The position numbers and the translations under genes are program-made. The notes beneath the pieces were generated by a model that saw only the letters and a program-made list of their open reading frames with translations, made no database searches and had not been told where the DNA came from. From positions 3,839-67,838 of the forward strand of contig JAUSPI010000154.1 of assembly GCA_030655775.1 (NCBI GenBank): a stretch of DNA of 64,000 nucleotides, given 5' to 3'. The stretch is from Syntrophales bacterium. Lineage in GTDB: Bacteria > Desulfobacterota > Syntrophia > Syntrophales > JADFWA01. Shown one piece after another: positions 45,176 to 60,309 of the stretch. Positions within the stretch are counted from its first letter, which is position 1. Every line of letters starts with the position of its first letter.

Positions 45176-45440
45176 GATTTTCCTCCTTTCTTTAGTTATT
45201 CTTTAAATTCTGTCTTTTGGCATTTTTGGTTACTCGTCTGAAATCTATTTGTTCAATTACGTCAGTTTTAATTTTACCTTAAATCACCTCCTTTCATGTC
45301 ATAGCAGTTATGGGTATTATGCAAACCCTTCAAAAAGACAATGCCGAGTTGCCCTGATAAGTTTGTATTAGATGAGTTTTCCGGCAAATTTGCCTATTTC
45401 CTATTATCAATAACTTTTCAACTATTATACTTGATGGTCT

Positions 45441-45556
45441 CGTAAAAAGTCTTTTTTTGTCACCCTGAATTTATTTCAGGGTCTCTAACTTGCTGAAATA
45501 ATTAGATGCTGAAACAAGTTCAGCATGACAAATGGTGCAGTTTATGACTTTTTACG
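45441..45556 (-). mobile_element. MITE-like element, copy 1 (TIR CGTAAAAAGTC)
   Basis: Sequence CGTAAAAAGTCTTTTTTTGTCACCC...GCTGAAACAAGTTCAGCATGACAAATGG...GACTTTTTACG. It is the reverse complement of the copy at 60172-60309. Confidence 0.8.
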
Positions 45557-45602
45557 AATGCATCATACTTGATGAATTGTTCGAGAGTCTCTAATTTTCA
45601 GT

Positions 45603-46403
45603 TCAAGATGCGATTCTTTTGTAGTATTCGGGACGCCGGTCCTCAGGCAAATTGTTCTTCTGAGTTATTGATTTATCCCGGGCCTTGCTCACGTCGATCT
45701 CAGCTATGAAAAGTTCCTCTTCCTCGGGCTTCGCGCGATAAACCAATTCGCCCTTCGGCCCCACCAATTGGCTTTGACCGGTAAAAGTCAAAGTGCCCCT
45801 CGGACGAATTTCCGAACCAAAGCGGTTTGCCGTGACAGCGAAAACAAAATTTTCCAGGCAGCGGGTGAGCATGGCCTGCTGGCAGTATGAAAGAACCAAA
45901 TTAGATGGATGACACAGAAGATCAGCACCTTGCAGGGTAAGTACCCGGGCAACCTCGGGGAATGTCCAATCGAAACAGATCATTACGCCAATTTTTACAC
46001 CGCGCAATTCAATCGTATCGAGGGGAGTGTCGCCAGGATCAAAATACTCTTTTTCTGTGTTGAAGAGATGTAACTTTCGGTAAGTATGGAGAATGCCATC
46101 ACCCCCAATGACCAGGGCGCTGTTGAATATCTTGTCAGCGCTTTTTTCGGCAAATCCGGTAACCAAAAAGAAATCATGGTCGCGACATAATGCAATCAGG
46201 CTGGAAACAGTTGGAGACTTAGCAGGATCTTCTGCCAGTGAAGCAAGTTCTGAACGATCCTCAAAGAAGTATCCGGTGAACGCAAGTTCGGGTAAAACAA
46301 TGATATCTGCTTCGGCGCCGCGCAAAGCAGACACTACCTTCGAAAGATTAACCGCCACTTCCCCAAACTTAGGGTCAAACTGAAAAAATCCCACTCTAAG
46401 CAT
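45603..46403 (-). CDS. carbon-nitrogen hydrolase (nitrilase superfamily amidase)
   Basis: 266 aa. Glu-Lys-Cys contexts (LPELAFTGY, YRKLHLF, VMICFDWTFPE). Confidence 0.85.
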   Translation of the reverse strand: MLRVGFFQFDPKFGEVAVNLSKVVSALRGAEADIIVLPELAFTGYFFEDRSELASLAEDPAKSPTVSSLIALCRDHDFFLVTGFAEKSADKIFNSALVIGGDGILHTYRKLHLFNTEKEYFDPGDTPLDTIELRGVKIGVMICFDWTFPEVARVLTLQGADLLCHPSNLVLSYCQQAMLTRCLENFVFAVTANRFGSEIRPRGTLTFTGQSQLVGPKGELVYRAKPEEEELFIAEIDVSKARDKSITQKNNLPEDRRPEYYKRIAS

Positions 46404-46601
46404 CTCAGTCCTCGTTCCACTTTTTTGTAAGTATTATGAGTAATTAGAAGGGATATGTCAAGGGTAATCACTTCTGCCCTACCCCTCCACAATTTTGTTG
46501 ACACTAAATCGGCTTTAATGCATAGTCAACGGTCAATAAGACTGTGTATCTTTAACTGTTTGAATTAACTGATGAACATATTAATGTTAGAGAGGTAGAA
46601 C

Positions 46602-48767
46602 ATGAAAATACTGCAGCAGATCAACTATAAGCCTGCCATAGTTACAGGCGGATATACTGACCGGATACTGAAAGTGGATCTCGGCACACAGGATATTACC
46701 ATTGTGGAACTGGAGCCGGAATTTAAGAATAAATATGTCGGCGGCCGAGGATATGCCATAAAGCTAATCTGGGATGAAACAAGCAGGGAGACCCGTTATG
46801 ACAGCCCGGAAAATATTCTCGTCATGGCCAGCGGCCCGCTGGGCAACGAACCCGGTTTCCCGGGCACCGGCAAATTTGTCTTTGGCACTATCTCGCCCCT
46901 TACAGATACATTCATAGATTCAAATATCGGTGGTCACTTTGCGCCGTTGCTAAAACTTGCCGGTTTTGACGCAATGGCCGTCTCTGGAATTTCCGGAGAG
47001 GATGTTGTCATTATTGTTGATGGAGATGCCGGAACCATCAGCATCGCCGCCGCGCCAGCCTACGATAAAAAAACAGATGAAGGTGCCCTCTCCTTTGGCG
47101 AAGCCCTTCTAAAAGACGTTAACAGTGGAGAGTTCAGCAACGATATAGCTGCGGTAACCGCGGGGAAAGGCGCGTGCAATGCCAGGTTTGGTATCATTAA
47201 CAGCCTCTTTTTCGACCTGAAGCGTAAACGCATCCGCTCCAAGCAGGCCGGCAGAGGCGGCACTGGAACAGTCATGCGGTTCAAAGGTCTGAGGGGAATT
47301 ATTGCCCGCTCCGGTCTTTCAAAAGCGAATGGCAACAATGCAATAGATCCTGAAGGCGTACGCGAGGCAGGTTCCGCATTAAAAAAAGTTTTAAGGCAGT
47401 ACGACCCGGAACAGCTCCGTTTATCCGCATGGGGCACCACCGGCCTTTCCGAGTATATGGATAAGTTTCACATTTTCCCGATTAATAATTATCAATACGG
47501 GCAGAGTCCGGAGTCTAAAAAGATCTTTTCATATGTCTTTCTCGACAAGTATTTCAGTAAAAAGATGCAAGACGGGTGCTATTACGGCTGTAATCTGGCA
47601 TGTGCCAAGACTGCTGAAGACGTTGAGCTGACAAGGGGGCCGGAGGCAGGACGAAAGGTCTGTATTGACGGCCCTGAGTATGAAACCGTAGGGTCTGTTT
47701 CCTGTATGGGTATCTTTGATCCCCATTATATTATGGAATATAACTGGTATTGTGATGAATACGGCCTCGATACAATCTCCACAGGTGTGACAATATCGTT
47801 CTTTATGGAGTGTGTCCAGCGCGGCTTTCTGAGTACAGCTGATATCGGTTATGACCTGACATTCGGTAACATAGACGCCGCAGACCGCCTACTGCATGAA
47901 ATCGCCGACGGAGAAGGTTTTGGTAAGATTGTCGGCCAGGGGGTAGCAAGGGGCAAGAGATGGGTTGCTGAAAAATATTCAGCCGGAAAAGACGTATCCA
48001 AAGATGATGTGATGGAGGAGTTGAACAAATTCGGAATGGAGGTTAAAGGGCTTGAATTTTCGATGTACATCACCAAAGAGTCACTCGCCCAGCAGGGCGG
48101 GTACGGCTTTGCCCTGAAAGGACCGCAGCATGATGAGGCATGGCTGATCTTTATCGACCAGGTCAACAAAGAGCTTCCGACTTTTGAACTTAAAGCCAAT
48201 GCGCTCCGGTGGTTCCCCCAGATCCGCACATGGTTCAATGCCACAGGGCTGTGCAAGCTTCCGTGGATCGACGTGCGTCATCCCGATGCGGCAAGTACGG
48301 AAGCCCCCGCAAAGAACTTTCCCACGCTGGAATATTATGTCAAATATCTCAACTCGACAACGGGCAGCAGCAAAACCCTGCAGGATATACTGGACGATTC
48401 AGAACGGCTGTTATTACTGCAGAAGATGATCAATCTCCGCCAGGGAAAGGGAACCCGCTCAAGCGATCAGATTCCGTTAAGAGCCATGGGCCCCGTGTAT
48501 TCTAACGAGCATGAATCTCGAACCGAATATTACGATGAATGGCTGCAGGAACGTCTCGGTAAGGAGAAGATGCCGGATGATCCGAACGAAAGGCATAAGC
48601 TTCTGATGGAAATTAGAATACAGGATTACCAACGCCTTTGTGATGCCGTATATAAGGAAAAAGGGTTCTCGTCCGACGGGATTCCTTTGCCTGAAACTCT
48701 GGAAAAATTCGACCTGATGGACGAGCAGGCCAGAGCGCTGCTGAAGGAGTTCGGAACGTTCGGGTAA
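46602..48767 (+). CDS. aldehyde:ferredoxin oxidoreductase family (tungstopterin) enzyme
   Basis: 721 aa. AOR N-terminal domain pattern (GGYTDRILKVDL...YVGGRGYAIKL) plus C-terminal AOR domains. Confidence 0.85.
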   Translation: MKILQQINYKPAIVTGGYTDRILKVDLGTQDITIVELEPEFKNKYVGGRGYAIKLIWDETSRETRYDSPENILVMASGPLGNEPGFPGTGKFVFGTISPLTDTFIDSNIGGHFAPLLKLAGFDAMAVSGISGEDVVIIVDGDAGTISIAAAPAYDKKTDEGALSFGEALLKDVNSGEFSNDIAAVTAGKGACNARFGIINSLFFDLKRKRIRSKQAGRGGTGTVMRFKGLRGIIARSGLSKANGNNAIDPEGVREAGSALKKVLRQYDPEQLRLSAWGTTGLSEYMDKFHIFPINNYQYGQSPESKKIFSYVFLDKYFSKKMQDGCYYGCNLACAKTAEDVELTRGPEAGRKVCIDGPEYETVGSVSCMGIFDPHYIMEYNWYCDEYGLDTISTGVTISFFMECVQRGFLSTADIGYDLTFGNIDAADRLLHEIADGEGFGKIVGQGVARGKRWVAEKYSAGKDVSKDDVMEELNKFGMEVKGLEFSMYITKESLAQQGGYGFALKGPQHDEAWLIFIDQVNKELPTFELKANALRWFPQIRTWFNATGLCKLPWIDVRHPDAASTEAPAKNFPTLEYYVKYLNSTTGSSKTLQDILDDSERLLLLQKMINLRQGKGTRSSDQIPLRAMGPVYSNEHESRTEYYDEWLQERLGKEKMPDDPNERHKLLMEIRIQDYQRLCDAVYKEKGFSSDGIPLPETLEKFDLMDEQARALLKEFGTFG

Positions 48768-48774
48768 GAAATCG

Positions 48775-49667
48775 GGGGTCAGGTCTTGCTTTTTGCCACC
48801 CTTGCGGCGATTTTACTGACCCGTGAATAATGAAGTCCAATGTGGTTGCCAACATCCTTCAATTTATATCCCCAACGGTACACAGCATCGTAGATTCCTT
48901 CGTTTCTTTGCGTGCCCTCGAATATCTCCGTAAGGGAGGGACGTGCGGCATACTTCTCCATTCGCACAGCCTCATCCGTTTCCGACTCATCAATTAACTT
49001 TTGGACTTTTTCAATAAATTCTCCTCGCCCTAATATCAGCCCGCCTCTGGCTTCTTTCAAAGGACTTTCACTATCCGATCCCTCCTTCACAAAGGAAATG
49101 TACCGTTCACGGGCATGAACCTTCGAAGGGGAGAATAAAGCTAGGAGCCAGTCTGTGTGGAGAACCGATTCTCGTTGTCTCATACCAGCCGTTGCACCGT
49201 ATGACGACCAAGACCATTCTTCCGGTGAATGAACCAGTCCCGCCCGTACAGGATTCAACGCAATATATCGGCTGAGTTCGAGAAGGTAGGCATCCTTTTC
49301 GACGACAAATGCTTTATAGCGGCCCTGGAAGAGATGGCCTACACGATCGTGACGCCTGTTATACTTCTGGGTGTAAACGCCATTGAGCTGGCGCATGCCC
49401 TGGGATAGATTAGCCTGGGGAGTTTCCACCAGGAGGTGATAATGGTTGCCCATGAGGCAGTACGCATGGACAATCCAGCGATAACGTTCAACCACATCGG
49501 CAAGGATCATGAGAAACGTCCGGTAGTCTTCAGTATCTGCAAAGATATCCTGCCGGGCATTTCCCCGGGAGGTTATATGATAAAAACCACCTTCGTATTC
49601 TATGCGTATCGGCCGTGCCATGAACAACAGGTATCATACATGATGGCAAAAAGCAAGACCTGACCCC
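48775..49667. mobile_element. Y1-transposase (RAYT/IS200-like) gene unit bracketed by perfect 24-bp inverted repeats
   Basis: GGGGTCAGGTCTTGCTTTTTGCCA at 48775-48798, with its exact reverse complement at 49644-49667. Confidence 0.8.
48779..49621 (-). CDS. IS200/RAYT-like HUH Y1 transposase with C-terminal DnaA-domain-IV-like HTH
   Basis: HUH motif GNHYHLLVE. Tyr context YIALNPVRAGLV. C-terminal ...GYKLKDVGNHIGLHYSRVSKI. The stop codon lies inside the left inverted repeat. Confidence 0.8.
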   Translation of the reverse strand: MARPIRIEYEGGFYHITSRGNARQDIFADTEDYRTFLMILADVVERYRWIVHAYCLMGNHYHLLVETPQANLSQGMRQLNGVYTQKYNRRHDRVGHLFQGRYKAFVVEKDAYLLELSRYIALNPVRAGLVHSPEEWSWSSYGATAGMRQRESVLHTDWLLALFSPSKVHARERYISFVKEGSDSESPLKEARGGLILGRGEFIEKVQKLIDESETDEAVRMEKYAARPSLTEIFEGTQRNEGIYDAVYRWGYKLKDVGNHIGLHYSRVSKIAARVAKSKT

Positions 49668-49681
49668 TTTGAATTGACCGG

Positions 49682-50017
49682 TTAGTAGATGCAGGCATCT
49701 AATATCGATAGCACGTTTGCCAGCAGTTCATCTGAGGCACGTTCGATGCGCTTCGCTTGACGAGTACGGAAGTCGACTGACTTGACCTGCTCAACCATGA
49801 TGAACCCCGTCAGGCTACTATTTTCCGGAACAGGTACGTGGAAGGGAAACCCGCGTTCTGTGTTCGTTAGGGGACACACAATGGCCAAGCCAGTGCTACG
49901 GTTGAACAAGTCCTTGCTCACAACCAGAGCAGGCCGACGCCCTTTCTGTTCGTAACCGGACTGGGGATCGAAAGTGATGGCAATAATGTCGCCTTGTCTG
50001 GGGATATAGACCGCCAT
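49682..50017 (-). CDS. mazF: MazF/PemK-family endoribonuclease toxin
   Basis: 111 aa. GDIIAITFDPQSGYEQKGRRPALVVS...IVCPLTN pattern. ATG adjacent to the mazE stop. Confidence 0.85.
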   Translation of the reverse strand: MAVYIPRQGDIIAITFDPQSGYEQKGRRPALVVSKDLFNRSTGLAIVCPLTNTERGFPFHVPVPENSSLTGFIMVEQVKSVDFRTRQAKRIERASDELLANVLSILDACIY

Positions 50018-50266
50018 CTACCATGCCTCCTTACCGACCGGCTCCCCCCAATCGACTTCGCTGGTGTGGTAGTCTTCGGGAATTTGCGCCACGAGGTCCT
50101 CGAGACGGTACCGTCCGCGGATTTTCCTGATTGGCGCGATAACGATGATACCGTCTCGTACCGCAACCTCCACCTCGTCCCCAACTCCAAGGCGAGCATC
50201 TTCTAGCACGTTCTTGGCAAGACGTAGTCCCTGACTATTACCCCATTTTTGAATCTTCGTATGCAT
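50018..50266 (-). CDS. mazE: MazE/AbrB-SpoVT-family antitoxin
   Basis: MHTKIQKWGNSQGLRLAK start. ATG 50266 is preceded by AAGGAGGTGG. Confidence 0.8.
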   Translation of the reverse strand: MHTKIQKWGNSQGLRLAKNVLEDARLGVGDEVEVAVRDGIIVIAPIRKIRGRYRLEDLVAQIPEDYHTSEVDWGEPVGKEAW

Positions 50267-50292
50267 GTAACCACCTCCTTGTGTATATCCCA

Positions 50293-50321
50293 AGTATAGC
50301 CATTCCAGGCCAAGCAGTCAA
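50293..50321 (-). promoter_or_regulatory. near-consensus sigma70 promoter of mazEF
   Basis: Minus strand TTGACT (50321..50316), 17-nt spacer, TATACT (50298..50293). Confidence 0.6.
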
Positions 50322-50345
50322 GAGGTATTTTAGGCAACCGCCTTG

Positions 50346-50807
50346 TTAGCTGCGGTTTTGTTCTGATTCATGTTCGAGTTTTCCAGCCTCCTGATATAAA
50401 TCAGATAGAGCGCTTTCTGCTTTAAAATATATATCCTGAAGTCTTTTTTCCTTTCTCAGTAATGGATGGCATCCAAGAAATTGGTAAATATAATCTATGG
50501 CCACCCATGATCGATCCAAGAATTCAGAATAATGGCCTTGATTTATTTCTGGAGCCTCTTCATCCGGGACCAGGATTTCTTTACCATCCATTATCTTCGC
50601 TATTAATATTGGTTTTTGAAAGGCCTTTATAAAATGCCTGATGTCCTCACGAAGTTCGGAAGGTGTTTCTCCAAATGGTTCCATTGCTGATTCAGTCCAT
50701 CCTTCAATTGATCCATTTTCATCATAATATACTTCGTGAATATGATATGTATGAGTATCATTTTCCTCATGATATCTATGGATAACCCTGTGATTCCAAA
50801 AAAACAT
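50346..50807 (-). CDS. hypothetical cassette protein (153 aa)
   Basis: ATG 50807 is 6 nt after GGAG. The N-terminal WNHRVI...IHEVYYDENG block recurs in small uncharacterised proteins. No function known to me. Confidence 0.5.
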   Translation of the reverse strand: MFFWNHRVIHRYHEENDTHTYHIHEVYYDENGSIEGWTESAMEPFGETPSELREDIRHFIKAFQKPILIAKIMDGKEILVPDEEAPEINQGHYSEFLDRSWVAIDYIYQFLGCHPLLRKEKRLQDIYFKAESALSDLYQEAGKLEHESEQNRS

Positions 50808-50836
50808 GTTTGACTCCAAAATCTATTAATTTTTAC

Positions 50837-51011
50837 AGCTAACGCCGAGTTGAGCGGAACCCCGACTTGGCGTGAAAGGAAAGTATTTTTACTTTCCTTT
50901 CGCGTCAATCAAGGGGCGGAGTCCCGCAGAGCGGGATTTCCGCTCGAACGATTTGTTCGCGCCGCTTGCGGCGCGTCAAATCGGAGAGTGTAGCTGAACT
51001 CGGCGTTCGCC
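50837..51011 (-). other. unusually long (~175 nt) branched attC-like palindrome / ORF-less cassette DNA
   Basis: Outer stem AACGCCGAGTTCAGC / GCTCAACTCGGCGTT encloses three internal hairpins (for example GAAAGGAAAGTA-loop-TACTTTCCTTTC). On the minus strand it ends in GTTAGCT. Confidence 0.5.
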
Positions 51012-51107
51012 ACGCCGCAGGCGAGGCGAACGTTTTGCCCTTCTCGGATTTTTGCAATCATTCAACAAAAATTCTTTAGTAAAATAGGGGAGGTGTCCCC
51101 CATGTTT

Positions 51108-51180
51108 CATATTTATTGAACAATGGATTGAGTTCGACCGCCTCGCGGATCGACTCAATCCTTATAGGTTATATGAATTC
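51108..51180 (-). other. attC site of cassette 2
   Basis: Minus strand GAATTCATATAAC-CTATAAGGATTGAGTCGA-TCCGCGAGGCGG-TCGAACTCAATCCATT-GTTCAATAAATATG. Confidence 0.65.
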
Positions 51181-51192
51181 TCTCCATCTTAA

Positions 51193-52239
51193 TTACTCAA
51201 TTGTCAGTATATCGGATGAAACTCCAAATTTTTCTAATAGCCGTTTAGCAGAGTTTATTAAACCAGCAGTGTTATTATGTGCGTCTATCCATAGCCCATT
51301 TGAAAGTTTTTTGGGAGCACGAAAATCATCACCATACTTTTGCTTCGGTTCCTTATTGATAAGGTTTCTTTTACCTCGTCCAATTACTACTGGACAGTCA
51401 GAGGGTTTTAGCTTGCCGTTCTTTACGAGCCAGTTAGCAGTGGTGACTAAAATTTCATAAGAATTGCGGAGTTCAAAGACTTCACCTTTTAGTTTCATCT
51501 TTCGTGGCCTTTCACCTCGAAATGGTATTGATTCCATGGATGTATCAGAGGAAGTTTTCTCCCCAAATTCACCTGAAATTATTTCCTTAACCCTTTCTTT
51601 CAACAAATCCTCAATTTCTGTGTCTTCAAACTGATAGTCTAGATAACCTTGCGTGATAATCGATTTAACTACTGGCATGAGCCCCTTTATCATCTCTTCA
51701 GGCTCATCCAAGAGAGATTGCCATATTTCATCTAATATTTGAGATTTCTTCACTAAAACTTCTATATATTCGATGTTGGTTTTTGAGATTGTAGATATCT
51801 TTCTGAGTACCGCTGGCAGTTCTTCATTTTCTATGTCTGTTTTCCAAATGATTCGCTCAGTTAAAGTGGTTCCCTCTTCGAATGACCTAATCAGCACCCA
51901 TATTGCGCCGTTGGTCAATACACCGTATTTTGTGCCCTCGCCAAAAGAATACTTTGCTAATTGGCGGACGACTTCTTTTTGTTCAATGTCAACATCCAAC
52001 TTTTTTGCTTCAACGAAGAGGATTTTCTTTCCGTTCTTAATCAAGGAGTAGTCTGGCACACCTTCTTCTGTGGATACATTAGGCTGTACTTCCTCGGGGT
52101 TTTCAGGATCCCATCCGAGATTCCGCAAAATAGGATTTATTATTTGGTCCCTCACCGCCATCTCGTTCTGCTCATAAAGAGAACGAAATTTCTTTATTTT
52201 TTCTACTATCGGTACTAAAGCCTCGTTTAGATTATTCAT
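51193..52239 (-). CDS. restriction-endonuclease-like protein (type I restriction R-subunit N-terminal / HSDR_N-type domain) with uncharacterised C-terminal domain
   Basis: 348 aa. N-terminal E..VRDQIINPILRNLGWD...GVPDYSL...ILFVEAKK (PD-(D/E)xK-like D...EAK). Confidence 0.55.
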   Translation of the reverse strand: MNNLNEALVPIVEKIKKFRSLYEQNEMAVRDQIINPILRNLGWDPENPEEVQPNVSTEEGVPDYSLIKNGKKILFVEAKKLDVDIEQKEVVRQLAKYSFGEGTKYGVLTNGAIWVLIRSFEEGTTLTERIIWKTDIENEELPAVLRKISTISKTNIEYIEVLVKKSQILDEIWQSLLDEPEEMIKGLMPVVKSIITQGYLDYQFEDTEIEDLLKERVKEIISGEFGEKTSSDTSMESIPFRGERPRKMKLKGEVFELRNSYEILVTTANWLVKNGKLKPSDCPVVIGRGKRNLINKEPKQKYGDDFRAPKKLSNGLWIDAHNNTAGLINSAKRLLEKFGVSSDILTIE

Positions 52240-52265
52240 TTTTTCACGCTACTCCTTTATTAGTG

Positions 52266-52349
52266 GAATTCATATAACGCTTGGTATAACCGGTTTGAAA
52301 AAGCGTCAGCTTTTTCAAATCCGAGTTAATACCATTGTTATGTTTTTCA
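52266..52349 (-). other. attC site of cassette 1
   Basis: Minus strand TGAAAAACATAAC-AATGGTATTAAC-TCGG-ATTTGAAAAAGC-TGAC-GCTTTTTCAAA-CCGG-TTATACCAAGC-GTTATATGAATTC. This is an imperfect palindrome with unpaired bases. Confidence 0.75.
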
Positions 52350-54104
52350 GTCTGCTGTCCATCTTGCCTCAAAGTGTTCACGTTCCATTTTAAGCCCCAG
52401 TTTTATCTTATTGGCAATCTCAGCATTCATCATAGGTAACATATTCAAGCTCTGGCTTACCGCAGCGCGTATTCCAGCCAAGCATGTTTTAGTTTTTATC
52501 CAGTTTTGCGGGCTAAAAACCCGATTTGATGGCTGTGGTTCATTTGCCGCAGATTCTAAAGCAAAACTTAAAGACCTACCTGCTAAGTCTACGATCTGAT
52601 CAGCCAAGCTGTCTTCAATCGCTCTATTCATCGCCAGGTTTGGATCTGGAACACTTTCCATAGGCATGGAGTTTGAAACTCCAAAACATACTGAAATCGC
52701 ATAAAGGTGGTGATATGGGGCATAAGCACGCATAGCGAGCAAACTTTCATTTAGGCCCAACGGATTATCTTTGTTCCATTTTTCCCAAACTTTTTTCATC
52801 CAGAAATTTAAAGCCTGTGCCTTTTCTGGAGAATAATCCTTTTTAAAAAGCTGATCAAAATACTTGTCAAAAATCTTTGTTTCACTATAGGCGATGTTTG
52901 GTCTTTGGGAGTGCCACGAAATGAGATACTTGCCCATATTAAGCAAATCCAATACATAGTCTTTGTCTTTAGACGCTGGGGAGACCTCACCGCGTTTGCT
53001 AACAAAATACCCGTTAGGATATTTCTGTTCATAAGATTTCTTAATATTTAAAACTCTTTTATCATTACTTCTGAGGTCTCTCGGTTTTACAGCACTTTGT
53101 GAATTGGTATTTACGCTTATTTTATCGCCTCTTTCCCTTTGGGGTATCTCATAGAAACGAAATAGAATATATGTTTCATCCAGTTGTTTAACTTTTTCGC
53201 TACAATTCAATATTGTGGTTAATGATTGACATCCATTTACAACACTCAAACCATGGAGTTTTAGCTCACTATTGTTCAACGATAATTTGTTGCAAATTGC
53301 TGTGATGCCATTATGATAAAAAAAGAAATCCTTATGCTGTGGTGAATATATAGTGCTTTTTATCCCTTTATTTACTCTGTTACTCATCCCTAAGCTCTGT
53401 CTAACGTTTTTTTGAAATAATGTTCCATCTTTTATACCTGGCATTCTTATACATTCTCTTAATGGCAGAGTTGCGACTACCACTTTATTTCCAGCTATTT
53501 CAATTTCCATGGCCTTGCTATTTGATAAATCTACATTGTGATTAATAGTTGGATTATCTTTTTCAAGAGCTATATCATACCTTCTCTTTAATTCATTATT
53601 GTCAACGACTTTAATCGTCGCAAAAAAATCGTTATTTTCACTCAGATCAACAAGCTGTGCTTGAAATGTGCCTAAGTCGGTTTTCGCAGCATCAGTTAGT
53701 GCACCTGTTGTAACCAGTTCAAATTCAATCTCGTATTCATCTTCCAAAGCTCTTGCTACTTCAGACAACTTTCTCTTTAATTTAGTGTTGCCGACCTCTT
53801 GAAGTCTAACTAAATCTCGCAATTGTACCCATGAAGACAATACTTCACGCAAAGGCTCAGCATCAACTGATCCGTTACCAATAAAATTGCCTTGCAGGAC
53901 AAAAATTGATTGCTGATTATCATCAATGAATATTGCATCAATTTGCTTGTCATCAGCCCCATCTGTCATATCATCCTTGGTTTCATTCATGTCCCTCAAA
54001 TGGATATTACGCAGATACCATGCAACAAATCGTTGACCATCATTTGGAAAATTCTGTTGATAAAATTTGTCTTGTATTTCGGCAGTTATTTTTTGGTACA
54101 TCAT
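52347..54104 (-). CDS. AIPR-family abortive-infection / phage-resistance protein
   Basis: Start set to ATG 54104 (AGGAGAAAGA RBS). N-terminal FVAWYL...TDGADDKQIDAIFID, then FFYHNGITAI...VVNGCQSLTTI...KPRDLRSND. These blocks are typical of AIPR proteins. Confidence 0.75.
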   Translation of the reverse strand: MMYQKITAEIQDKFYQQNFPNDGQRFVAWYLRNIHLRDMNETKDDMTDGADDKQIDAIFIDDNQQSIFVLQGNFIGNGSVDAEPLREVLSSWVQLRDLVRLQEVGNTKLKRKLSEVARALEDEYEIEFELVTTGALTDAAKTDLGTFQAQLVDLSENNDFFATIKVVDNNELKRRYDIALEKDNPTINHNVDLSNSKAMEIEIAGNKVVVATLPLRECIRMPGIKDGTLFQKNVRQSLGMSNRVNKGIKSTIYSPQHKDFFFYHNGITAICNKLSLNNSELKLHGLSVVNGCQSLTTILNCSEKVKQLDETYILFRFYEIPQRERGDKISVNTNSQSAVKPRDLRSNDKRVLNIKKSYEQKYPNGYFVSKRGEVSPASKDKDYVLDLLNMGKYLISWHSQRPNIAYSETKIFDKYFDQLFKKDYSPEKAQALNFWMKKVWEKWNKDNPLGLNESLLAMRAYAPYHHLYAISVCFGVSNSMPMESVPDPNLAMNRAIEDSLADQIVDLAGRSLSFALESAANEPQPSNRVFSPQNWIKTKTCLAGIRAAVSQSLNMLPMMNAEIANKIKLGLKMEREHFEARWTAD

Positions 54105-54130
54105 TCTTTCTCCTATTGAGATAAATGTAT

Positions 54131-54142
54131 TGAAAACATAAC
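54131..54142 (-). other. attI core / first cassette boundary
   Basis: The minus strand GTTATGTTTTCA is the inverted partner of TGAAAAACATAAC at the start of attC-1. Confidence 0.55.
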
Positions 54143-54148
54143 CATTGA

Positions 54149-54176
54149 TTAACAGGCAAATTTGCCCTGATATAAT
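54149..54176 (+). promoter_or_regulatory. candidate Pint promoter (extended -10) overlapped by a palindrome
   Basis: TTAACA (54149-54154), 16-nt spacer, TATAAT (54171-54176) preceded by TGA. The spacer contains GGCAAATTTGCC. Confidence 0.5.
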
Positions 54177-54255
54177 GATATTGATGACATTTTTGGGCAT
54201 ATTTGCCTTGCCCCATTATCTTCAGTTATGGTATTTTAATTGACAGGAGTATCAT

Positions 54256-55239
54256 ATGTCAATATCTAAAAACCGGAAACTGCTTGATGAAGCGCGGGAT
54301 GTGATGCGGCTGCATCACTACTCGATCCATACGGAACGAACTTATTGTGACTGGATTAAACGTTATATACGGCACCACAGTATGACCAGTCGGCAAGATC
54401 TAATAGAGGGTGAAGCCAAGATCGAGGCTTTCCTGACACACCTGGCAGTGGATAAAAACGTGGCTCCATCCACACAGAATCAGGCTATGAATGCGCTGGT
54501 TTTCCTGTACAAACATGTTCTGAAACAACCCCTTGACCAGGAAATTAATGCGGTCCGGGCATCCAGGAAGATCAATGTCCCCGTGGTTATGACCAGGGAA
54601 GAGGTAGCTCAGATCATTGCTCTTATGGGGGGTGTCCCGCAACTGGTTGCTAAGTTATTATACGGTAGCGGGCTACGCATTATGGAAGCTGTTCGCCTTC
54701 GTGTGCAAGATATAGACTATGATCTCAAGTGCCTCGTTGTACGTTCGGGCAAAGGCGCAAAAGATCGGATTACGACTTTCCCAACCTCAGCCATTCCGTT
54801 ACTTCAGAATCATCTTGCAAAAGTGCGGGTGATCCATAACCGGGATCTGGATCAAGGGCACGGGGAGGTTTACATGCCAAATGCTCTCGCAAGGAAATAT
54901 CCAAATGCCGCAAAGGAATGGAATTGGCAGTATGTGTTTCCCGCTCGTAATCTTGCAATTGATCCGCGCAGCGGAAAAGTACGACGTCATCATGTAGATC
55001 CCAGTGTTATAAACAAGGCTATCAAGGCGGCTGTACGTAAGACAGGGCTGACGAAACGAGTAAGCGCTCACACATTCCGGCACAGTTTCGCCACTCATCT
55101 TCTTCAGCGCGGCACCGATATCAGGACTATACAGGCATTATTAGGGCACAAGGATGTAGCCACAACCATGATATACACTCATGTACTGCAACAGGGTGGA
55201 CAGGGTGTGCTAAGTCCGCTCGATGACCTTGATGTCTGA
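54256..55239 (+). CDS. intI: integron integrase
   Basis: 327 aa tyrosine recombinase with RHRY contexts ([43 protein letters not shown]). It carries the IntI-specific insertion [21 protein letters not shown]...[12 protein letters not shown]. Confidence 0.9.
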
Positions 55240-55326
55240 AGGTTTTACAGGGTTTCTTAAGCGGCTATCGAAAAACAGGACAGGCGAAAAATGATACTAT
55301 ATTAACGATAAACAGGGAGGAAGGGA

Positions 55327-57744
55327 ATGTCATATAAAATCAAGAAAGCTGCCGTTTTGGGGGCGGGGGTCATGGGTACCGGGATTGCCGCTCACCTGGC
55401 GAATGCGGGGATTGAGTGTGTGTTGCTCAATAATATACCTTCTCAACTGACCGATGACGACAGAAAAAATGGCTTGACCGAGGAGAGTCCGCAGTGGCGA
55501 AACCGCAGGGCGGCAGATAGCCTGGCGAGAGCATTGAAATCGAAACCTCCCGGTTTTTATTCCGGCAAGACTGCTTCATTGATTGAGATCGGAAACCTGC
55601 AGGACGACCTCAACCGGCTGTCTGATGTAGACTGGGTCATTGAAGCGGTTGTTGAAAATCTGAAAAAGAAAAAGGACCTTTTGGCAAAGATCGAAAAGAT
55701 CGTAAAACCGGAGTGCATCGTTTCAACGAATACATCGGGTTTGCCGATCAAAGATATCTCGGCTGACTTCGGCACAGGACTGAAAGAGCACTTTCTGGGG
55801 ATTCATTTCTTTAATCCTCCCCGTTACATGAAACTCGTAGAAGTTATCCCCGGTGAGGAAACGAAAAGAGGGGTAGTGGATTATATAACGACATTCTGTG
55901 AGGAAGCTCTCGGAAAGAGTGTGGTCATCTGCAAGGATGTGAACAGTTTTATTGCCAACCGCATCGGCACATTCGATCTATCGAATGCGGCAAAGATTAT
56001 GCTTGATAAGGGTCTCACGATAGAGGAGCTGGATGCCATAATCGGCAAGGAAGCGGGCAGGCCGGGTTCGTCAATATTTGGAACCCTGGACCTGATCGGC
56101 CTGGATACGATTCGCAGGATGATGATCAATCTTTATGAAGCGGCGCCGGACGATGAAATAAGAGGTATCTTTGTGCCGCAGGATCTGATGAACAAAATGG
56201 TGAAGAAAAAATGGCTGGGAAACAAGACGAGGCAAGGTTTCTATAAAAGAACGAAGGATGAGGAGGGAAAGAGTGTCAAACTGGTTCTTGATTACAATAA
56301 TATGGAATACATTCCCCTTAAAAAACCGGCATTTGCCTCGATTTCAGAAGCGAAGAAGATGAAAGGGGGGCCTGAGGCAAAGCTGAAGGCGCTGTTCAAC
56401 GGGACAGACATCGCCGCCGATGTTGTCCGTGAGTACCTCTGCAGAAATTTCATCTATGCGGCCAACCGCATCCCCGAAATCTGCGATACTATTGTGGAGA
56501 CAGATAACGCCATGAGATGGGGTTACAATCACGAACTGGGACCCTTTGAACAGTGGGATGCCGTAGGTCTAAGGGAATCCTTGGAGGTGATGGACAATCT
56601 GAAACTGGACGTTCCCGGAAAGATTGCCGGGATGGTGGAAGCCGGCTTTGAATCTTTTTATCTCAAAAAGGAGGATGGCGGATATTACTACGATTTCAAG
56701 ACTATGGGTTATGTTAAACTTAAAGTTAATCCAAAGATAATCCTTCTGCCCTCTCTAAAAGAAAGAAAAAAGGTCGTCAGGGAAAATCCCTCCGCAAGTC
56801 TTGTGGATATTGGCGATGGTGTCGCCTGTCTCGAATTTCATACCAAGATGAACACGATAGACGATAGTGTCATACAGATGATCTTTGACAGTTGCGATAT
56901 TGTGGAGAAGGACTTTCTCGGAATGGTCGTTGCGAACCATGGCGCTAATTTCTCGGTAGGGGTCAATCTCTTTATGCTTCTTGAGATAATCGGGAGGGGG
57001 GAATGGAACACTATTGACCGTATGATCCAGGCTTTTCAAAATGCCAACATGAGAATGAAATTCCTGGAAAAGCCGGTAGTGACCGCTCCGGCGGGGATGG
57101 CGCTGGGCGGAGGGTGCGAGATATCGATGCATGGGGCACGATGTCAGCCATGCGGGGAAACTTACATAGGACTGGTGGAAGTGATGGCCGGTGTTATCCC
57201 TGCGGGAGGTGGAACGAAAGAACTGATGGTGCGCTGTACCGAAGGAATACCGGCCGGTGTCAGTGAAGCGGCATCAACCCTTCCGGCTGCCTATAATAAG
57301 GTTTTTGAAACTATAGGCACAGCCAAGGTATCCACCAGCGCCGCGGAGGCGATGGAGATGGGTTACATCAGAGAAACAGATGCCGTCAGCATTAACCGGG
57401 ACTACCAGATCCGGGACGCGAAAGAGGTTGCCCTCGGTTTGTCAAAATCCTATAAGAAACCGGAGCCCGCGATGATTTTCGTTATGGGAGAACAGTTCAG
57501 TAGTGCCTGCAGGGCTGCTCTGGACAATATGAGGCAGGGAAATCTTATTTCCGACTACGATGTCCTTGTTGCGATGAAGCTTGCCGGGGTTATTGCGGGC
57601 GGTGATTATAGAGAGGGAACGCCGGTTACGGAACAGAAGATACTCGACCTGGAGAGGGAAGCCTTTGTGAGTCTCTGTGGAGAATCCAAGACTCAGGACA
57701 GGATCAAGCATGTGCTGACAACCGGAAAACCGTTACGCAATTAA
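55327..57744 (+). CDS. bifunctional 3-hydroxyacyl-CoA dehydrogenase / enoyl-CoA hydratase (FadN-like architecture)
   Basis: 805 aa. N-terminal NAD Rossmann AAVLGAGVMGTGIAAHLA. C-terminal crotonase fold (...APAGMALGGGCEISMH). Confidence 0.85.
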   Translation: MSYKIKKAAVLGAGVMGTGIAAHLANAGIECVLLNNIPSQLTDDDRKNGLTEESPQWRNRRAADSLARALKSKPPGFYSGKTASLIEIGNLQDDLNRLSDVDWVIEAVVENLKKKKDLLAKIEKIVKPECIVSTNTSGLPIKDISADFGTGLKEHFLGIHFFNPPRYMKLVEVIPGEETKRGVVDYITTFCEEALGKSVVICKDVNSFIANRIGTFDLSNAAKIMLDKGLTIEELDAIIGKEAGRPGSSIFGTLDLIGLDTIRRMMINLYEAAPDDEIRGIFVPQDLMNKMVKKKWLGNKTRQGFYKRTKDEEGKSVKLVLDYNNMEYIPLKKPAFASISEAKKMKGGPEAKLKALFNGTDIAADVVREYLCRNFIYAANRIPEICDTIVETDNAMRWGYNHELGPFEQWDAVGLRESLEVMDNLKLDVPGKIAGMVEAGFESFYLKKEDGGYYYDFKTMGYVKLKVNPKIILLPSLKERKKVVRENPSASLVDIGDGVACLEFHTKMNTIDDSVIQMIFDSCDIVEKDFLGMVVANHGANFSVGVNLFMLLEIIGRGEWNTIDRMIQAFQNANMRMKFLEKPVVTAPAGMALGGGCEISMHGARCQPCGETYIGLVEVMAGVIPAGGGTKELMVRCTEGIPAGVSEAASTLPAAYNKVFETIGTAKVSTSAAEAMEMGYIRETDAVSINRDYQIRDAKEVALGLSKSYKKPEPAMIFVMGEQFSSACRAALDNMRQGNLISDYDVLVAMKLAGVIAGGDYREGTPVTEQKILDLEREAFVSLCGESKTQDRIKHVLTTGKPLRN

Positions 57745-57846
57745 AAATGGAAAGCGGACACGCTCTGCAATAAAATATATTGACAAACAAGCATTTAACA
57801 AATAGCTATCGGGTGGCGATGAAAATAAAAATGAGGAGATTGCGGC

Positions 57847-59178
57847 ATGTTTGAATGCAGAACAAAAGAAGACGTATTGAAGATTGTCAAGGAGCAAGAC
57901 GTCAGTTTTATACAGTTCTGGTTTACGGACGTTCTGGGAATGCTCAAAACATTCAGTGTTACTCCTTCAGAACTGGAAGAAGGATTGACGGAAGGTATGG
58001 GATTTGATGGTTCTTCAATTCAAGGATTTGCCCGGATTGAGGAGAGCGACATGATCGCCAAACCTGATCCTGTCACTTTTCAGATAATTTCCTGGCGGCC
58101 AAGTGATCGACCGGTTGCCCGCATGTTCTGTGATATCCTCAATCCTGATGGAACTCCCTATGAGGGTGACCCCCGCTATGTCTTAAAATGTATGCTCAAG
58201 AAGGCGAGTGATCTCGGCTATACTTTCTATGTGGGACCGGAACTTGAGTATTTCTACTTTGCAAGTGAAACCTCACCCGATATCCTCGATCGGGCGGGAT
58301 ACTTTGATGGTTTGCCTATGGATCGCGGCACCGAGCTTCGCCGACAGACTATCTTCGCGCTACAGGAAATGGGCATTCAGGTGGAATACAGCCATCATGA
58401 AGTGGCCCCCAGTCAGCACGAGATTGACCTCCGCTACATGGAAGCCTTAAAGATGGCCGATGCCGTGATGACATATCGCACTACTGTGAAAGAAATTGCC
58501 CGGCAAAATGGTGTTTATGCCACCTTTATGCCTAAACCGATATTTGGTGAAAACGGCAGCGGTATGCATGTTCACCAGTCTTTGTTCAAGGGAGAAAAGA
58601 ATGCCTTTTTCGATGGGGATGATGAATATCATCTGTCTAAGGAAGCAAAGCATTATATAGCGGGGCTTCTGACGCATGTTCCTGAATTTACGGCTGTTAC
58701 TAACCAGTGGGTAAATTCTTATAAGCGACTTGTGCCCGGTTATGAAGCGCCTGTATATGTATCCTGGGCACGCCGCAATCGTTCCGCTCTGGTTCGAATC
58801 CCCATGTATAAACCCGGAAAGGAGAAAGCGACGCGTATCGAGCTTCGCTCTCCTGATCCGGCATGTAACCCCTATTTAGCCTTTGCGATTATGCTGGCAG
58901 CAGGATTGAAAGGAATCGAAAATAAGTATCCGCTTCCAGAACCTATTGAAGAAGATATTTATGAGATGGATGAAAAGGCCAGATCTAAAGCTAACATTAC
59001 ATCGCTACCCGGCAGTCTCGTTCAGGCCCTGACATTGGCATCTGAAAGTGAACTCGTGAGAGAAGCTCTGGGAAATCATATCTTTAACAAATTCATTGAA
59101 AACAAAAGAGTTGAATGGGACAGATTCCGCACTCATGTAAGCCGTTACGAAATTGAGCGTTATCTGCCGCTTCTCTAA
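57847..59178 (+). CDS. glnA: glutamine synthetase, type I
   Basis: 443 aa. FWFTDVLG beta-grasp N-terminus, ATP-binding block KPIFGENGSGMHVHQS, and the NRSALVRIP region. Confidence 0.95.
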   Translation: MFECRTKEDVLKIVKEQDVSFIQFWFTDVLGMLKTFSVTPSELEEGLTEGMGFDGSSIQGFARIEESDMIAKPDPVTFQIISWRPSDRPVARMFCDILNPDGTPYEGDPRYVLKCMLKKASDLGYTFYVGPELEYFYFASETSPDILDRAGYFDGLPMDRGTELRRQTIFALQEMGIQVEYSHHEVAPSQHEIDLRYMEALKMADAVMTYRTTVKEIARQNGVYATFMPKPIFGENGSGMHVHQSLFKGEKNAFFDGDDEYHLSKEAKHYIAGLLTHVPEFTAVTNQWVNSYKRLVPGYEAPVYVSWARRNRSALVRIPMYKPGKEKATRIELRSPDPACNPYLAFAIMLAAGLKGIENKYPLPEPIEEDIYEMDEKARSKANITSLPGSLVQALTLASESELVREALGNHIFNKFIENKRVEWDRFRTHVSRYEIERYLPLL

Positions 59179-59257
59179 CCCGCCGGCAGGGGCAACTTGA
59201 GTAGTTGCCCTGCCGGTCAGATTTGCCCTCAAACGTTAACGTATGGAGTTTATTTAA

Positions 59258-59313
59258 GTAGGGTGGTATTTTATATGCCACCGTTTGCGGTCGGGTATAA
59301 AACCCGACCCTAC
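59258..59313. repeat. GTAGGG...CCCTAC clamped twin-hairpin element, second copy
   Basis: Sequence GTAGG-GTGGTATTTTATATGCCAC-CGTTTGC-GGTCGGGTATAAAACCCGACC-CTAC. Same clamp and layout as 10177-10235 but with different stems. Confidence 0.65.
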
Positions 59314-59331
59314 TCCGAGCAGGTTTTAATT

Positions 59332-60150
59332 ATGATAGAATTTTTTAAAATGAGCGGAAGCGGAAATGACTTTATCCTGATCGACAACAGAGACGATTCT
59401 CTTTCCGTAGGAAACTTAAAAGAGTTTGTGAAAAAGGTATGTGAAAGGAAGACCTCGGGGGGGGCGGACGGATTGATCATTATAGAAAATTCCGACAGGG
59501 TCGATTTCCGCTGGCGTTTTTTTAATGCCGACGGCAGCGAGGTAGAAATGTGCGGGAACGGAGGAAGATGTGCTGCCCGTTTTGCCGTCATTAAAGGTAT
59601 TTCCAGTGAAACCCTCTCTTTCGAAACCGTTGCGGGAATCATCGACGCCGAAGTGAAAGGAAACGTGGTCAAGTTGAGATTGACCGAACCGCATGATTTG
59701 AAGACCGACTATAACCTTAACATCGAGAACAGTCCATATATAGTAAACAGCATAAACACAGGTGTTCCGCATGTGGTGCATTTCGTTGACGACCTTGATT
59801 CATACGATGTCAGGGGCTACGGCCCGCTGATCCGCTATCACGAAGTATATCAGCCTGAAGGGACAAACGCGAATTTTGTACGGGTCATAGATAGAAATAC
59901 TCTCAGGATAAGAACCTATGAAAGGGGCGTTGAAGATGAGACTCTGGCCTGCGGTACCGGTGCCGTGGCATCCGCATTGATATCTTCCTGGAAGGGCCGG
60001 GTTGAATCTCCTGTCGATGTTCAGGTAAAAAGCGGAGAAACGTTAACGATATATTTTGAAAAGACAGACAATGGATTTGAAAAGGTTTATCTGGAGGGCG
60101 GAACCAGCGTTGTGTATCAGGGCCACCTCTGGGAAGAAGCGTGGAAATAG
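59332..60150 (+). CDS. dapF: diaminopimelate epimerase
   Basis: MIEFFKMSGSGNDFILID start. Catalytic Cys contexts MCGNGGRC and LACGTGAVAS. The upstream 45 codons in the track are repeat-derived. Confidence 0.9.
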   Translation: MIEFFKMSGSGNDFILIDNRDDSLSVGNLKEFVKKVCERKTSGGADGLIIIENSDRVDFRWRFFNADGSEVEMCGNGGRCAARFAVIKGISSETLSFETVAGIIDAEVKGNVVKLRLTEPHDLKTDYNLNIENSPYIVNSINTGVPHVVHFVDDLDSYDVRGYGPLIRYHEVYQPEGTNANFVRVIDRNTLRIRTYERGVEDETLACGTGAVASALISSWKGRVESPVDVQVKSGETLTIYFEKTDNGFEKVYLEGGTSVVYQGHLWEEAWK

Positions 60151-60171
60151 TGAGTTTAAAGTTTAAAGTAT

Positions 60172-60309
60172 TCGTAAAAAGTCTCAAAATGTGCCATTTG
60201 TCATGCTGAACTTGTTTCAGCATCTAAACATTTCAATAAGTTAGAGACCCTGAATGATCCTGAAACAAGTCCAGGACATGATTTTGGGTGACAAAAAAGA
60301 CTTTTTACG
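60172..60309 (+). mobile_element. MITE-like element, copy 2 (TIR CGTAAAAAGTC)
   Basis: Sequence CGTAAAAAGTCTCAAAATGTGCCATTTGTCATGCTGAACTTGTTTCAGCATC...GGGTGACAAAAAAGACTTTTTACG. It lies between dapF and the aminotransferase gene. Confidence 0.8.

Follow-up and report, generated by a model that had tools for sequence, protein, structure and literature searches.

The present work deals with a 64-kb stretch of DNA from a Syntrophales bacterium (contig JAUSPI010000154.1, positions 3,839 to 67,838; hereafter, the window), which very probably carries a complete chromosomal integron of a Syntrophales/Desulfobacterota-type genome with a partly decayed cassette array. The integron consists of an intact integrase gene, a conserved attI site and, on the other strand, four cassette units with two canonical attC sites, named attC1 and attC3. 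The integrase gene is a plus-strand open reading frame (ORF) of 327 aa at 54256-55239, and the minus-strand ORFs to the left of it encode, in order, proteins of 585/617, 348, 153/157, 82/91, 111 and then 282 aa. An earlier note, made from the letters of this DNA, had described an AT-rich array divergent from intI, and this description is correct: the GC content is 0.32-0.42 across 50200-54200, where the cassette genes lie, versus 0.45-0.52 in the flanks, and intI itself (0.46-0.49) has the composition of the backbone. All the coordinates and sequence strings quoted in that note were found in their places. The complementary and palindromic features on which it was built are far beyond chance; to read them as three attC sites is correct only in part.

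Judging from its sequence, the tyrosine recombinase belongs to the IntI clade and is a full-length integron integrase. It matches the NCBIfam model TIGR02249 (integron integrase) with 446.3 bits at a cut-off of 265; with the equivalog models of XerC (cut-off 335) and XerD (cut-off 330), it reaches only 146 and 140 bits. The alignment to the Vibrio cholerae integrase IntIA (PDB 2a3v) is continuous over residues 10-323 (E 1e-90) and unbroken across residues 188-241, so that the IntI-specific additional domain, covering the stretch that ends in RRHHV, is included; the alignment to the XerC-like structure 4a8e falls into two pieces, and residues 188-241 are skipped. The catalytic positions R-K-H-R-H-Y are intact, and the motifs align with their VchIntIA counterparts. 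The protein is 46.7% identical to IntI1. Both the integron-specific domain and the distinction from XerC/D-like recombinases, as proposed in the earlier note, hold. Its remark that integrons of such anaerobes are poorly explored was overstated, since 565 relatives of this IntI were found in GTDB genomes and the known hosts of integrons already include Desulfobacterota (PMC8618304).

These data bear directly on the opposite explanation, according to which there is no integron here at all, only a XerC/D-like recombinase beside a defence island, with the palindromes being terminators or repetitive extragenic palindromes. The array genes are indeed defence and toxin-antitoxin genes, one of the palindromes is truly not an attC, and a terminator-like hairpin is present at 51101-51087. 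Nevertheless, the XerC/XerD scores far under their cut-offs beside 446 bits for the integron-integrase model, two attC matches on the correct strand and an attI kept in the relatives examined leave this explanation practically no probability; it is already refuted by the IntI profiles, the structural alignment, the attC models and the conservation of attI.

The attI site (54140-54210, minus strand) was recognized by aligning the 200 nt upstream of intI with those of 13 relatives. It contains two conserved boxes, TATCA(A/G)GGCAAAT(T/A)TGCC, at 54154-54167 and 54195-54208, and then runs ...AATCAATGGTT. In 11 relatives, similarity stops exactly after this end (junction CAATGGTT, GTT), with different cassettes beyond it, so that the junction suggested earlier is the true crossover. 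Two relatives, L003 and L004, have near-identical attI regions and differing first cassettes. Because homology of the relatives ends there and L003 and L004 share attI while differing in the first cassette, the crossover can be placed in ...AATCAATG|GTT, at G54142|T54141. A unitig of the Logan collection matches the window with 100% identity for 6079 nt and stops at 54143.

Two predicted promoters face each other in this region. A Pc-like site, TTGACA-18-TAAAAT (54233-54262, minus strand), matches 11 of 12 consensus positions, overlaps the start codon of intI and reads into the cassettes; its hexamers are kept in the closest relatives. A Pint-like site, TTAACA-16-TGnTATAAT (54149-54176, plus strand), reads into intI, is conserved in close relatives and has perfect TTGACA/TATAAT hexamers in L002, L005 and L008. 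Both are consensus matches, and the number of promoter-like sites in the region is equal to that expected after shuffling. The palindrome GGCAAATTTGCC lies inside the Pint-like spacer. In the more general form GGCAAA(T/A)(T/A)TGCC, this palindrome is conserved in the attI of the IntI clade and occurs in the window at 54154-54167 and 54195-54208, and also at 45383-45394; one of the two copies in attI is in the Pint-like spacer and the other is downstream of both predicted transcription starts. To our knowledge, it resembles neither the known IntI-binding repeats nor a LexA box, and it may be a repressor operator.

The third copy belongs to a second attI-like module (45340-45416, minus strand; AGGCAAATTTGCCGGAAAAC...CTTATCAGGGCAAC), which has no integrase gene. 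It is similar to the attI regions of 12 relatives (75-87% identity), being closer to them than to the attI of the window, and is located in an AT-rich stretch 8.7 kb away, upstream of a dodecin gene (45175-44960). Neither an attC nearby nor an intI remnant was found beside it. We regard it as a possible ghost integron or, alternatively, a shared operator.

Since a search of the whole window with Rfam at gathering thresholds gave no matches, our own covariance models of attC were built, different from those of IntegronFinder. Model R1 was obtained from 19 different attCs of class 1 integrons from PLSDB plasmids, aligned in register, with a geometry of the 5' half of R'' (7 nt), a spacer of 5 nt, 3 bp, one extra base and at least 5 bp, and of the 3' half of at least 5 bp, 3 bp, a spacer of 5-6 nt and R' (7 nt). 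Model R2 was trained on 50 environmental sites chosen among R1 matches in relatives. When R1 was run with filters off on both strands of the window (128 kb), exactly two matches below E 0.01 appeared, both on the minus strand and in the array; the next best had E 0.78. As a control of specificity, 945 kb from 80 loci encoding IntI relatives gave 54 matches at E<=0.1, all 54 on the cassette strand, and the dozen that were compared with intI coordinates were all upstream of intI. An attC covariance search, proposed earlier as a check, thus finds sites in the window with models that were not trained on it.

The first intact site, the canonical attC1 (52272-52343, minus strand), scores 25.5 bits with R1 (E 2e-4) and 24.4 bits with R2 (E 5e-4). 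It reads ACATAAC-AATGG-TAT-T-AAC-T-CGG...CCG-GTT-ATA-CCAAGC-GTTATAT, with the extra bases on the R''-L'' arm. The second, attC3 (50837-50961, minus strand), scores 34.2 bits with R1 (E 9e-7) and 42.1 bits with R2 (E 1e-8) and reads CGCGAAC-AAATC-GTT-C-GAGCGG...CCGCTC-AAC-TCGGC-GTTAGCT. The former is AT-rich and 72 nt long, the latter is GC-rich and 125 nt long, and they have only the cores in common. An alternative upstream 5' arm of attC3 exists at 51010-50990 (minus strand; GGCGAAC-GCCGA-GTT-C-AGC, a 17-bp pairing with the 3' arm); this arm is the choice of the energy model, and the downstream arm that of the covariance models. A weak inverted attC-like match (11 bits) overlaps 50943-51011 on the plus strand.

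Folding of the DNA revealed strongly folding imperfect palindromes after the first gene (z -6.9, attC1), after the second gene (z -5.7) and before the third gene (z -8.5, attC3), and no palindrome after the 153-aa gene (z -1.0) or after mazF (z +0.7). The view of the palindromes as attC sites is correct for attC1 and for the site ending in GTTAGCT (50843-50837), both supported by two models, and wrong for the palindrome at 51161-51125, which is the end of an insertion sequence (IS) of the IS91 family.

Cassette 1 (52278-54141, minus strand) carries an AIPR/AbiU-like abortive-infection gene (ORF 54104-52347, 585 aa). Its product matches Pfam AIPR (PF10592) with 124.8 bits at a cut-off of 25 and PADLOC AbiU with E 1.6e-35 over profile positions 129-505 of 537, and is therefore regarded as an AIPR-domain protein of the AbiU/AIPR type and a candidate anti-phage defence factor. 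Homologous cassettes carrying a homologous canonical attC were found in loci L161-L164. The pairing of the cassette start with its own R'' described in the earlier note is present, but needs a 1-nt bulge, 12 nt being set against 13 nt (GTTATG/TTTTCA versus TGAAAA-A-CATAAC).

Cassette 2 (51031-52277, minus strand) encodes a 348-aa HsdR-N-terminal (PD-(D/E)xK-like) protein (ORF 52239-51193), in which nothing besides Pfam HSDR_N is recognizable, and its attC is disrupted. The R'' box of this attC, GAATTCATATAAC (51168-51180, minus strand), is a perfect 13-nt complement of the start of its own cassette, and the string occurs exactly twice in the window, at 51168-51180 (minus) and 52266-52278 (plus). 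The rule that a cassette start complements its own R'' was confirmed here by homologous cassettes: five loci of two unrelated contexts are homologous to the window at the DNA level between 52278, the G of GTTATATGAA, and 51168, the final C of R'', both limits being exact, and a different, longer attC interior follows the R''. The other end of cassette 2, G51031, is fixed by the homology breakpoint at which the next cassette starts.

The gene of cassette 2 is very widely distributed. Its product has 485 homologues of the same length with 70-91% identity in Bacteria and Archaea, spanning Desulfobacterota, Omnitrophica, WS2, Desulfurella, Bathyarchaeota and Thermoplasmatales. In L101 and L102, the gene and its attC stand alone, inserted between genes for an SdhB-like protein and a fumarase; the gene adjoins a type III restriction-modification system in L096 and lacks an attC in L099 and L100. 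In L002, the locus of the closest IntI relative (90%), the first cassette (286-1401) encodes a 371-aa HsdR-N/PD-(D/E)xK protein without detectable sequence similarity to that of cassette 2. Such sharing of one cassette gene between Bacteria and Archaea, with some lone insertions at GTT sites outside integrons, is of interest in itself.

Directly after the R'' box of cassette 2 stands a solo 55-nt end of an IS91-family element (51113-51167, minus strand), which holds the hairpin 51161-51125 and is 98% identical to nt 1-55 of complete copies. A metagenome scan for this hairpin gave 58 contigs and 63 copies of the element with 53 distinct left flanks; 52 of these flanks end in AAC (consensus R-Y-M-T-A-A-C, resembling R''), and the conserved element starts immediately after them as CTATAA-hairpin-ATTGTTCAATAAGCCCGATC... 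Nine complete copies of about 2.47 kb (L118, L121, L128, L129, L136, L141, L143, L149 and L150) were recovered. Their proteins (L118 and others) show Y2_Tnp (195.7 bits) and Zn_Tnp_IS91 (97.7 bits) domains, and a tyrosine recombinase (128 bits) is encoded on the opposite strand. The Y2 HUH transposase, whose N-terminal domain is of the zinc-binding type, and the short fixed target at one end identify the donor of 51113-51167 as a member of the IS91 family; its interpretation as a group II intron or an IS1111-type element was rejected, as Pfam gives Y2_Tnp/IS91 and the integrase. In IS91, a fixed tetranucleotide lies next to the ori end, which is located downstream of tnpA. By analogy, we infer that the 55-nt end is ori-like.

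The complete copies end in ...GCCGCGTCAGCGGCTTACTTGAAC, followed by the spacer, L'', L' and R' of the interrupted attC. In L137, the element splits a homologue of attC3 between R'' (CGCGAAC) and spacer, so that attC3 represents the homologue of the empty site. Because R2 scores attCs beginning at the right end of the element (L118 2597-2723, L121 7337-7461), the element appears to supply a surrogate R'' (...CTTGAAC). In L136, an element is inserted after the right end of the element itself. Solo copies of the element end (53-55 nt) were also met in L107, L111, L114, L125 and L153. In the window, only nt 1-55 (51167-51113) are present; a search for the right end gave nothing, and there are no IS genes. 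According to the proposed scheme, the attC of cassette 2 would have been hit by the IS91-family element inserting after the AAC of R'', and only these 55 nt would be left.

The next 81 nt (51032-51112, minus strand), from the IS remnant to the next cassette, contain a terminator-like hairpin GGGGGACACCTCCCC followed by a T-run (TATTTT). They match none of the loci retrieved, do not fold significantly (z -1.0 to -1.4) and may be a residue of the 3' part of attC2 (...GGGCAAAAC-G). A 150-nt attC2 (R'' 51174, R' 51031) and an 87-nt mini-cassette were also considered and rejected, having z -1.0 to -1.4 and no model match. The GGGGGACACCTCCCC hairpin (51101-51087) would be expected to stop Pc-driven transcription before cassettes 3 and 4.

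If the map of the earlier note were right, the palindrome would be a functional, non-canonical attC of 60 nt (51174-51115; R'' ATATAAC, R' GTTCAAT, crossover G51121|TT). Such a site ending in GTTCAAT was rejected on the homology breakpoints and the metagenome scan. It folds strongly (z -5.7), has bulged bases and stands directly between a true R'' box and GTTC, with which other cassettes of the clade start. However, it was not detected by either attC model even at E<=10 with filters off, and its geometry is wrong (the spacers measure 6 and 3 nt, and the stem runs for 9 bp up to the first bulge). Moreover, the same 55 nt are a conserved IS91-family end after 53 different flanks, homologous cassettes have a different attC after the same R'', and homology sets G51031 as the point where the next cassette begins. 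Taken together, these facts make a functional attC at this place very doubtful. A convincing palindrome beside a genuine R'' box, hence, need not be an attC.

The wider reading, that the palindrome is a solo end of an undescribed IS91-family lineage which parasitizes attCs, keeps them usable through its surrogate R'' and travels as cassette cargo, is in our opinion a serious but still tentative possibility. The known parasites of attC are group IIC-attC introns (PMC8876359) and IS1111-attC elements (PMC11187229), and an IS91-like element, ISCR28, has been noted adjoining attCs (PMC12772301). No description of an attC-targeting IS91-like element was found in the searchable literature. If the reading is true, this lineage would be a third class of attC-targeting elements beside the introns and IS1111-attC.

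Cassette 3 (50843-51030, minus strand) was overlooked in the earlier cassette map, which also did not place the end of cassette 2 at G51031. It has no ORF, is 188 bp long and consists almost entirely of attC3; 11 of the 12 positions of its start GTTCGCCTCGCC are complementary to GGCGTGGCGAAC. The whole unit 51031-50840 occurs in L103 and L144 with 93-94% identity, starting exactly at G51031, and L093 and L095 share its first 66 nt (51031-50966), which begin there precisely with the GTT of an attC (R2 17.4 bits). Similar, nearly attC-only "empty" cassettes (GTTCRCG...CGYGAAC-AAATC-GTT-C-GAGC) were seen in L013 (~2026-2150) and L093 (949-1191), and these empty cassettes in relatives point to a clade-specific attC lineage.

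Cassette 4 (49674-50842, minus strand) is a fused unit that contains orf153, a vestigial attC and mazEF, and its terminal R'' is truncated. The product of orf153 (50807-50346, minus strand; 153 aa) has no family match. The 8-mer CAGCTAAC, on which its assignment to a separate cassette was based, does occur exactly twice in the window, at 50345-50352 (minus) and 50836-50843 (plus), and overlaps the stop codon of orf153; what follows, however, is only R'' and a vestige of 20 nt, AGCTAAC-AAGGCG-GTTGCCT (50351-50332, minus strand), with deleted L boxes and an R2 score of 8.4 bits, which is at the noise level, so that the gene shares its cassette with mazEF. A promoter-like site (50321-50293, minus strand) precedes mazE (50266-50018, minus strand; MazE_antitoxin, 30.2 bits) and mazF (50017-49682, minus strand; PemK_toxin, 97.3 bits). 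Both products exceed the Pfam cut-offs and stay under those of the NCBIfam equivalogs; from the domains, an AbrB-fold MazE followed by a PemK/MazF toxin is taken as a predicted type II toxin-antitoxin pair.

L093 and L095, from two other metagenomes, contain the block orf153-vestige-mazEF with 97-98% identity and homology up to 49674. In these loci, the block continues into an attC starting 8 nt after the mazF stop codon; in the window, the last attC is cut within R'' (~49680-49674), and homology ends at 49674. It is this comparison that shows the internal deletion after orf153 and the truncation after mazF. The 3' attC arms were looked for after both orf153 and mazF, and nothing folds there. 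The attC after orf153 would have lost its interior, fusing orf153 to mazEF, and the last attC would have been cut within its R'' beside the RAYT gene.

This gene (48779-49627, minus strand; region 48774-49668) encodes a RAYT-type (Y1 HUH) transposase of 282 aa, which matches the NCBIfam model REP_Tyr_transpos with 89 bits at a cut-off of 80 and has a C-terminal helix-turn-helix-like tail. It is bracketed by perfect 24-bp inverted repeats GGGGTCAGGTCTTGCTTTTTGCCA (48777-48798 and 49644-49665), which occur only these two times in the window, none being expected by chance. The unit is wedged between the stop codon of the aldehyde:ferredoxin oxidoreductase (AOR) gene (46602-48767), which forms the outer flank on the array side, and the truncated last attC. 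On the other side, a 3-hydroxyacyl-CoA dehydrogenase/enoyl-CoA hydratase (FadN-like) gene (55327-57744) flanks intI at a distance of 87 nt. The location between housekeeping genes indicated in the earlier note is valid as far as it means a chromosomal position, but the distal end is truncated in the last R'' beside the RAYT gene and does not simply abut AOR.

As for the functioning of this system, IntI would recombine the folded bottom strands of attCs with attI or with one another at G|TT. Incoming cassettes would be inserted at attI and read from the Pc-like promoter overlapping the intI start, the highest expression being expected for the first cassette with its AbiU/AIPR-type abortive-infection gene, and mazEF, with its own promoter-like site, would stabilize the array. 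Because the remaining attCs are disrupted, vestigial or cut, only cassette 1 (attI x attC1) and cassettes 2 and 3 as a block (attC1 x attC3) would still be excisable by IntI. Indirect signs of IntI-catalysed excision and insertion are seen in the sequence: the starts of cassettes 1, 2 and 3 complement their own R'' better than the neighbouring start does, and cassettes 2 and 3 occur elsewhere with identical boundaries. Three routes of attC loss may be traced in one array, namely IS insertion after R'', internal deletion fusing cassettes and truncation beside a RAYT gene.

Several points weigh against the interpretation of the region as a complete, partly decayed integron. The score of attC1 is modest (24-25 bits), and the E-values of R1 and R2 are rough, coming from a shortened calibration. 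Pc and Pint are predicted from consensus matches alone. The attC of cassette 2 is only presumably non-functional, given the unexplained 81 nt at 51112-51032. Finally, in the Logan sample SRR13727525, the only one with identical flanks, the unitigs (L001, L092 and L094) cover only 45536-48836, 49638-50959 and 54143-60221, without 50960-54142 and 48837-49637, so that the contiguity of cassettes 1-3 with the flanks rests on the assembly of the window.

The last point raises the question of whether the array as joined is an assembly chimera, in which cassettes of different strains were stitched together at repeated attC or IS sequences. The unitigs do break at 54143, beside the attI crossover, and at 50959, in the R'' of attC3, and an exact-protein look-up in SRR13727525 had neither the cassette 1 nor the cassette 2 protein on record. 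But cassette polymorphism or repeats in a true array would give the same breaks, the junctions attI|cassette 1 and attC1|cassette 2 obey the rule of pairing between a cassette start and its own R'', and a 100% identical cassette 2 protein is recorded on an 84.6-kb contig of a Syntrophales metagenome-assembled genome from NCBI. A chimera is consequently considered improbable. The breaks at the attI crossover, the R'' of attC3 and the RAYT repeats coincide with boundaries of mobile elements, which hints at variation of cassette content within the population of SRR13727525.

The term "chromosomal integron" is justified for this locus, while the strict term "sedentary chromosomal integron" is not shown to apply. 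In the strict sense, the term implies a large array of cassettes, attCs that are much alike and a position kept throughout the clade. The integron of the window has four cassette units with mutually unrelated attCs, and the label "sedentary" used in the earlier note does not hold in its usual sense. When the flanking and cassette proteins of the window were compared by tblastn with the 80 loci of other genomes, neither common synteny nor common cassettes were found. No locus among these 80 shares the flanking genes of the window, the closest IntI being 90% identical, and the relatives with 88-90% identity adjoin unrelated housekeeping genes, none of them AOR, FadN or GlnA.

It may be asked, then, whether the platform as a whole is a recently acquired or mobile integron or a part of a genomic island. 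The other contexts of the closest relatives speak for it, as do the heterogeneity of attCs, usual in mobile integrons, the 67-91% identical homologues of cassette genes across phyla (that of cassette 2 also in Archaea) and the second, integrase-less attI-like module. On the other hand, no transposition or conjugation genes flank intI, its GC content equals that of the backbone, intI lies 87 nt from the FadN-like gene with the array end near AOR, and the decayed attCs argue for long residence. We consider such an origin unlikely, though less so than a chimera.

Summarizing the significance of these data, it may be concluded that the integron itself is ordinary and adds little, because integrons of Desulfobacterota and cassettes with defence and toxin-antitoxin genes are already documented, the latter in sedentary chromosomal integrons (bioRxiv 10.1101/2024.07.02.601686). 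Among the by-products of the analysis, the IS91-like element that targets attCs is of the greatest interest; if it is undescribed, it is the part that would matter to specialists in integrons and mobile elements.

Among the known systems, the locus is closest in plan to environmental chromosomal integrons ("complete integrons" in the sense of IntegronFinder), for which IntIA of Vibrio cholerae with its VCR attCs (PDB 2a3v) served as the structural reference. It shares with them the additional domain of IntI, the divergent orientation of intI and cassettes, the G|TT crossover in attI, toxin-antitoxin and defence cassettes, Pc- and Pint-like sites placed face to face and attCs with an R box, an unpaired central spacer, an L box and extrahelical bases on the R''-L'' arm. 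It differs in having only four cassette units, attCs that are mutually unrelated, whereas VCRs are homogeneous, and a degenerate state of three of the five attCs. Its attI has two conserved GGCAAATTTGCC palindromes instead of the DR1/DR2 repeats of class 1 or a recognizable LexA box. As in the defence cassettes of sedentary chromosomal integrons (bioRxiv 10.1101/2024.07.02.601686), there are single-gene candidates (AbiU/AIPR and the PD-(D/E)xK-like protein) and a toxin-antitoxin pair, but the 585-aa AIPR gene is large for a cassette and the anti-phage role is putative.

With the class 1 integron (IntI1, attI1, 59-base elements), the window has in common an IntI of 46.7% identity and attCs of which a class 1-trained model finds two, attC1 and attC3; cassettes fused over a vestigial attC are likewise known from class 1, an example being blaOXA-10/aadA1 in L083, with a junction of 35 nt. 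Unlike class 1 integrons, the locus is chromosomal, without the Tn402 or 3'-conserved segment context and without resistance genes, and cassettes in its clade often start with GTTC and not with GTTRRRY. The element that left its end in cassette 2 resembles group IIC-attC introns and IS1111-attC in entering attC at a fixed orientation and position. It differs from them in having a Y2 HUH transposase and a tyrosine recombinase instead of a reverse transcriptase or a DEDD transposase, in sitting between R'' and the central spacer and in its far end, which serves as a surrogate R''.

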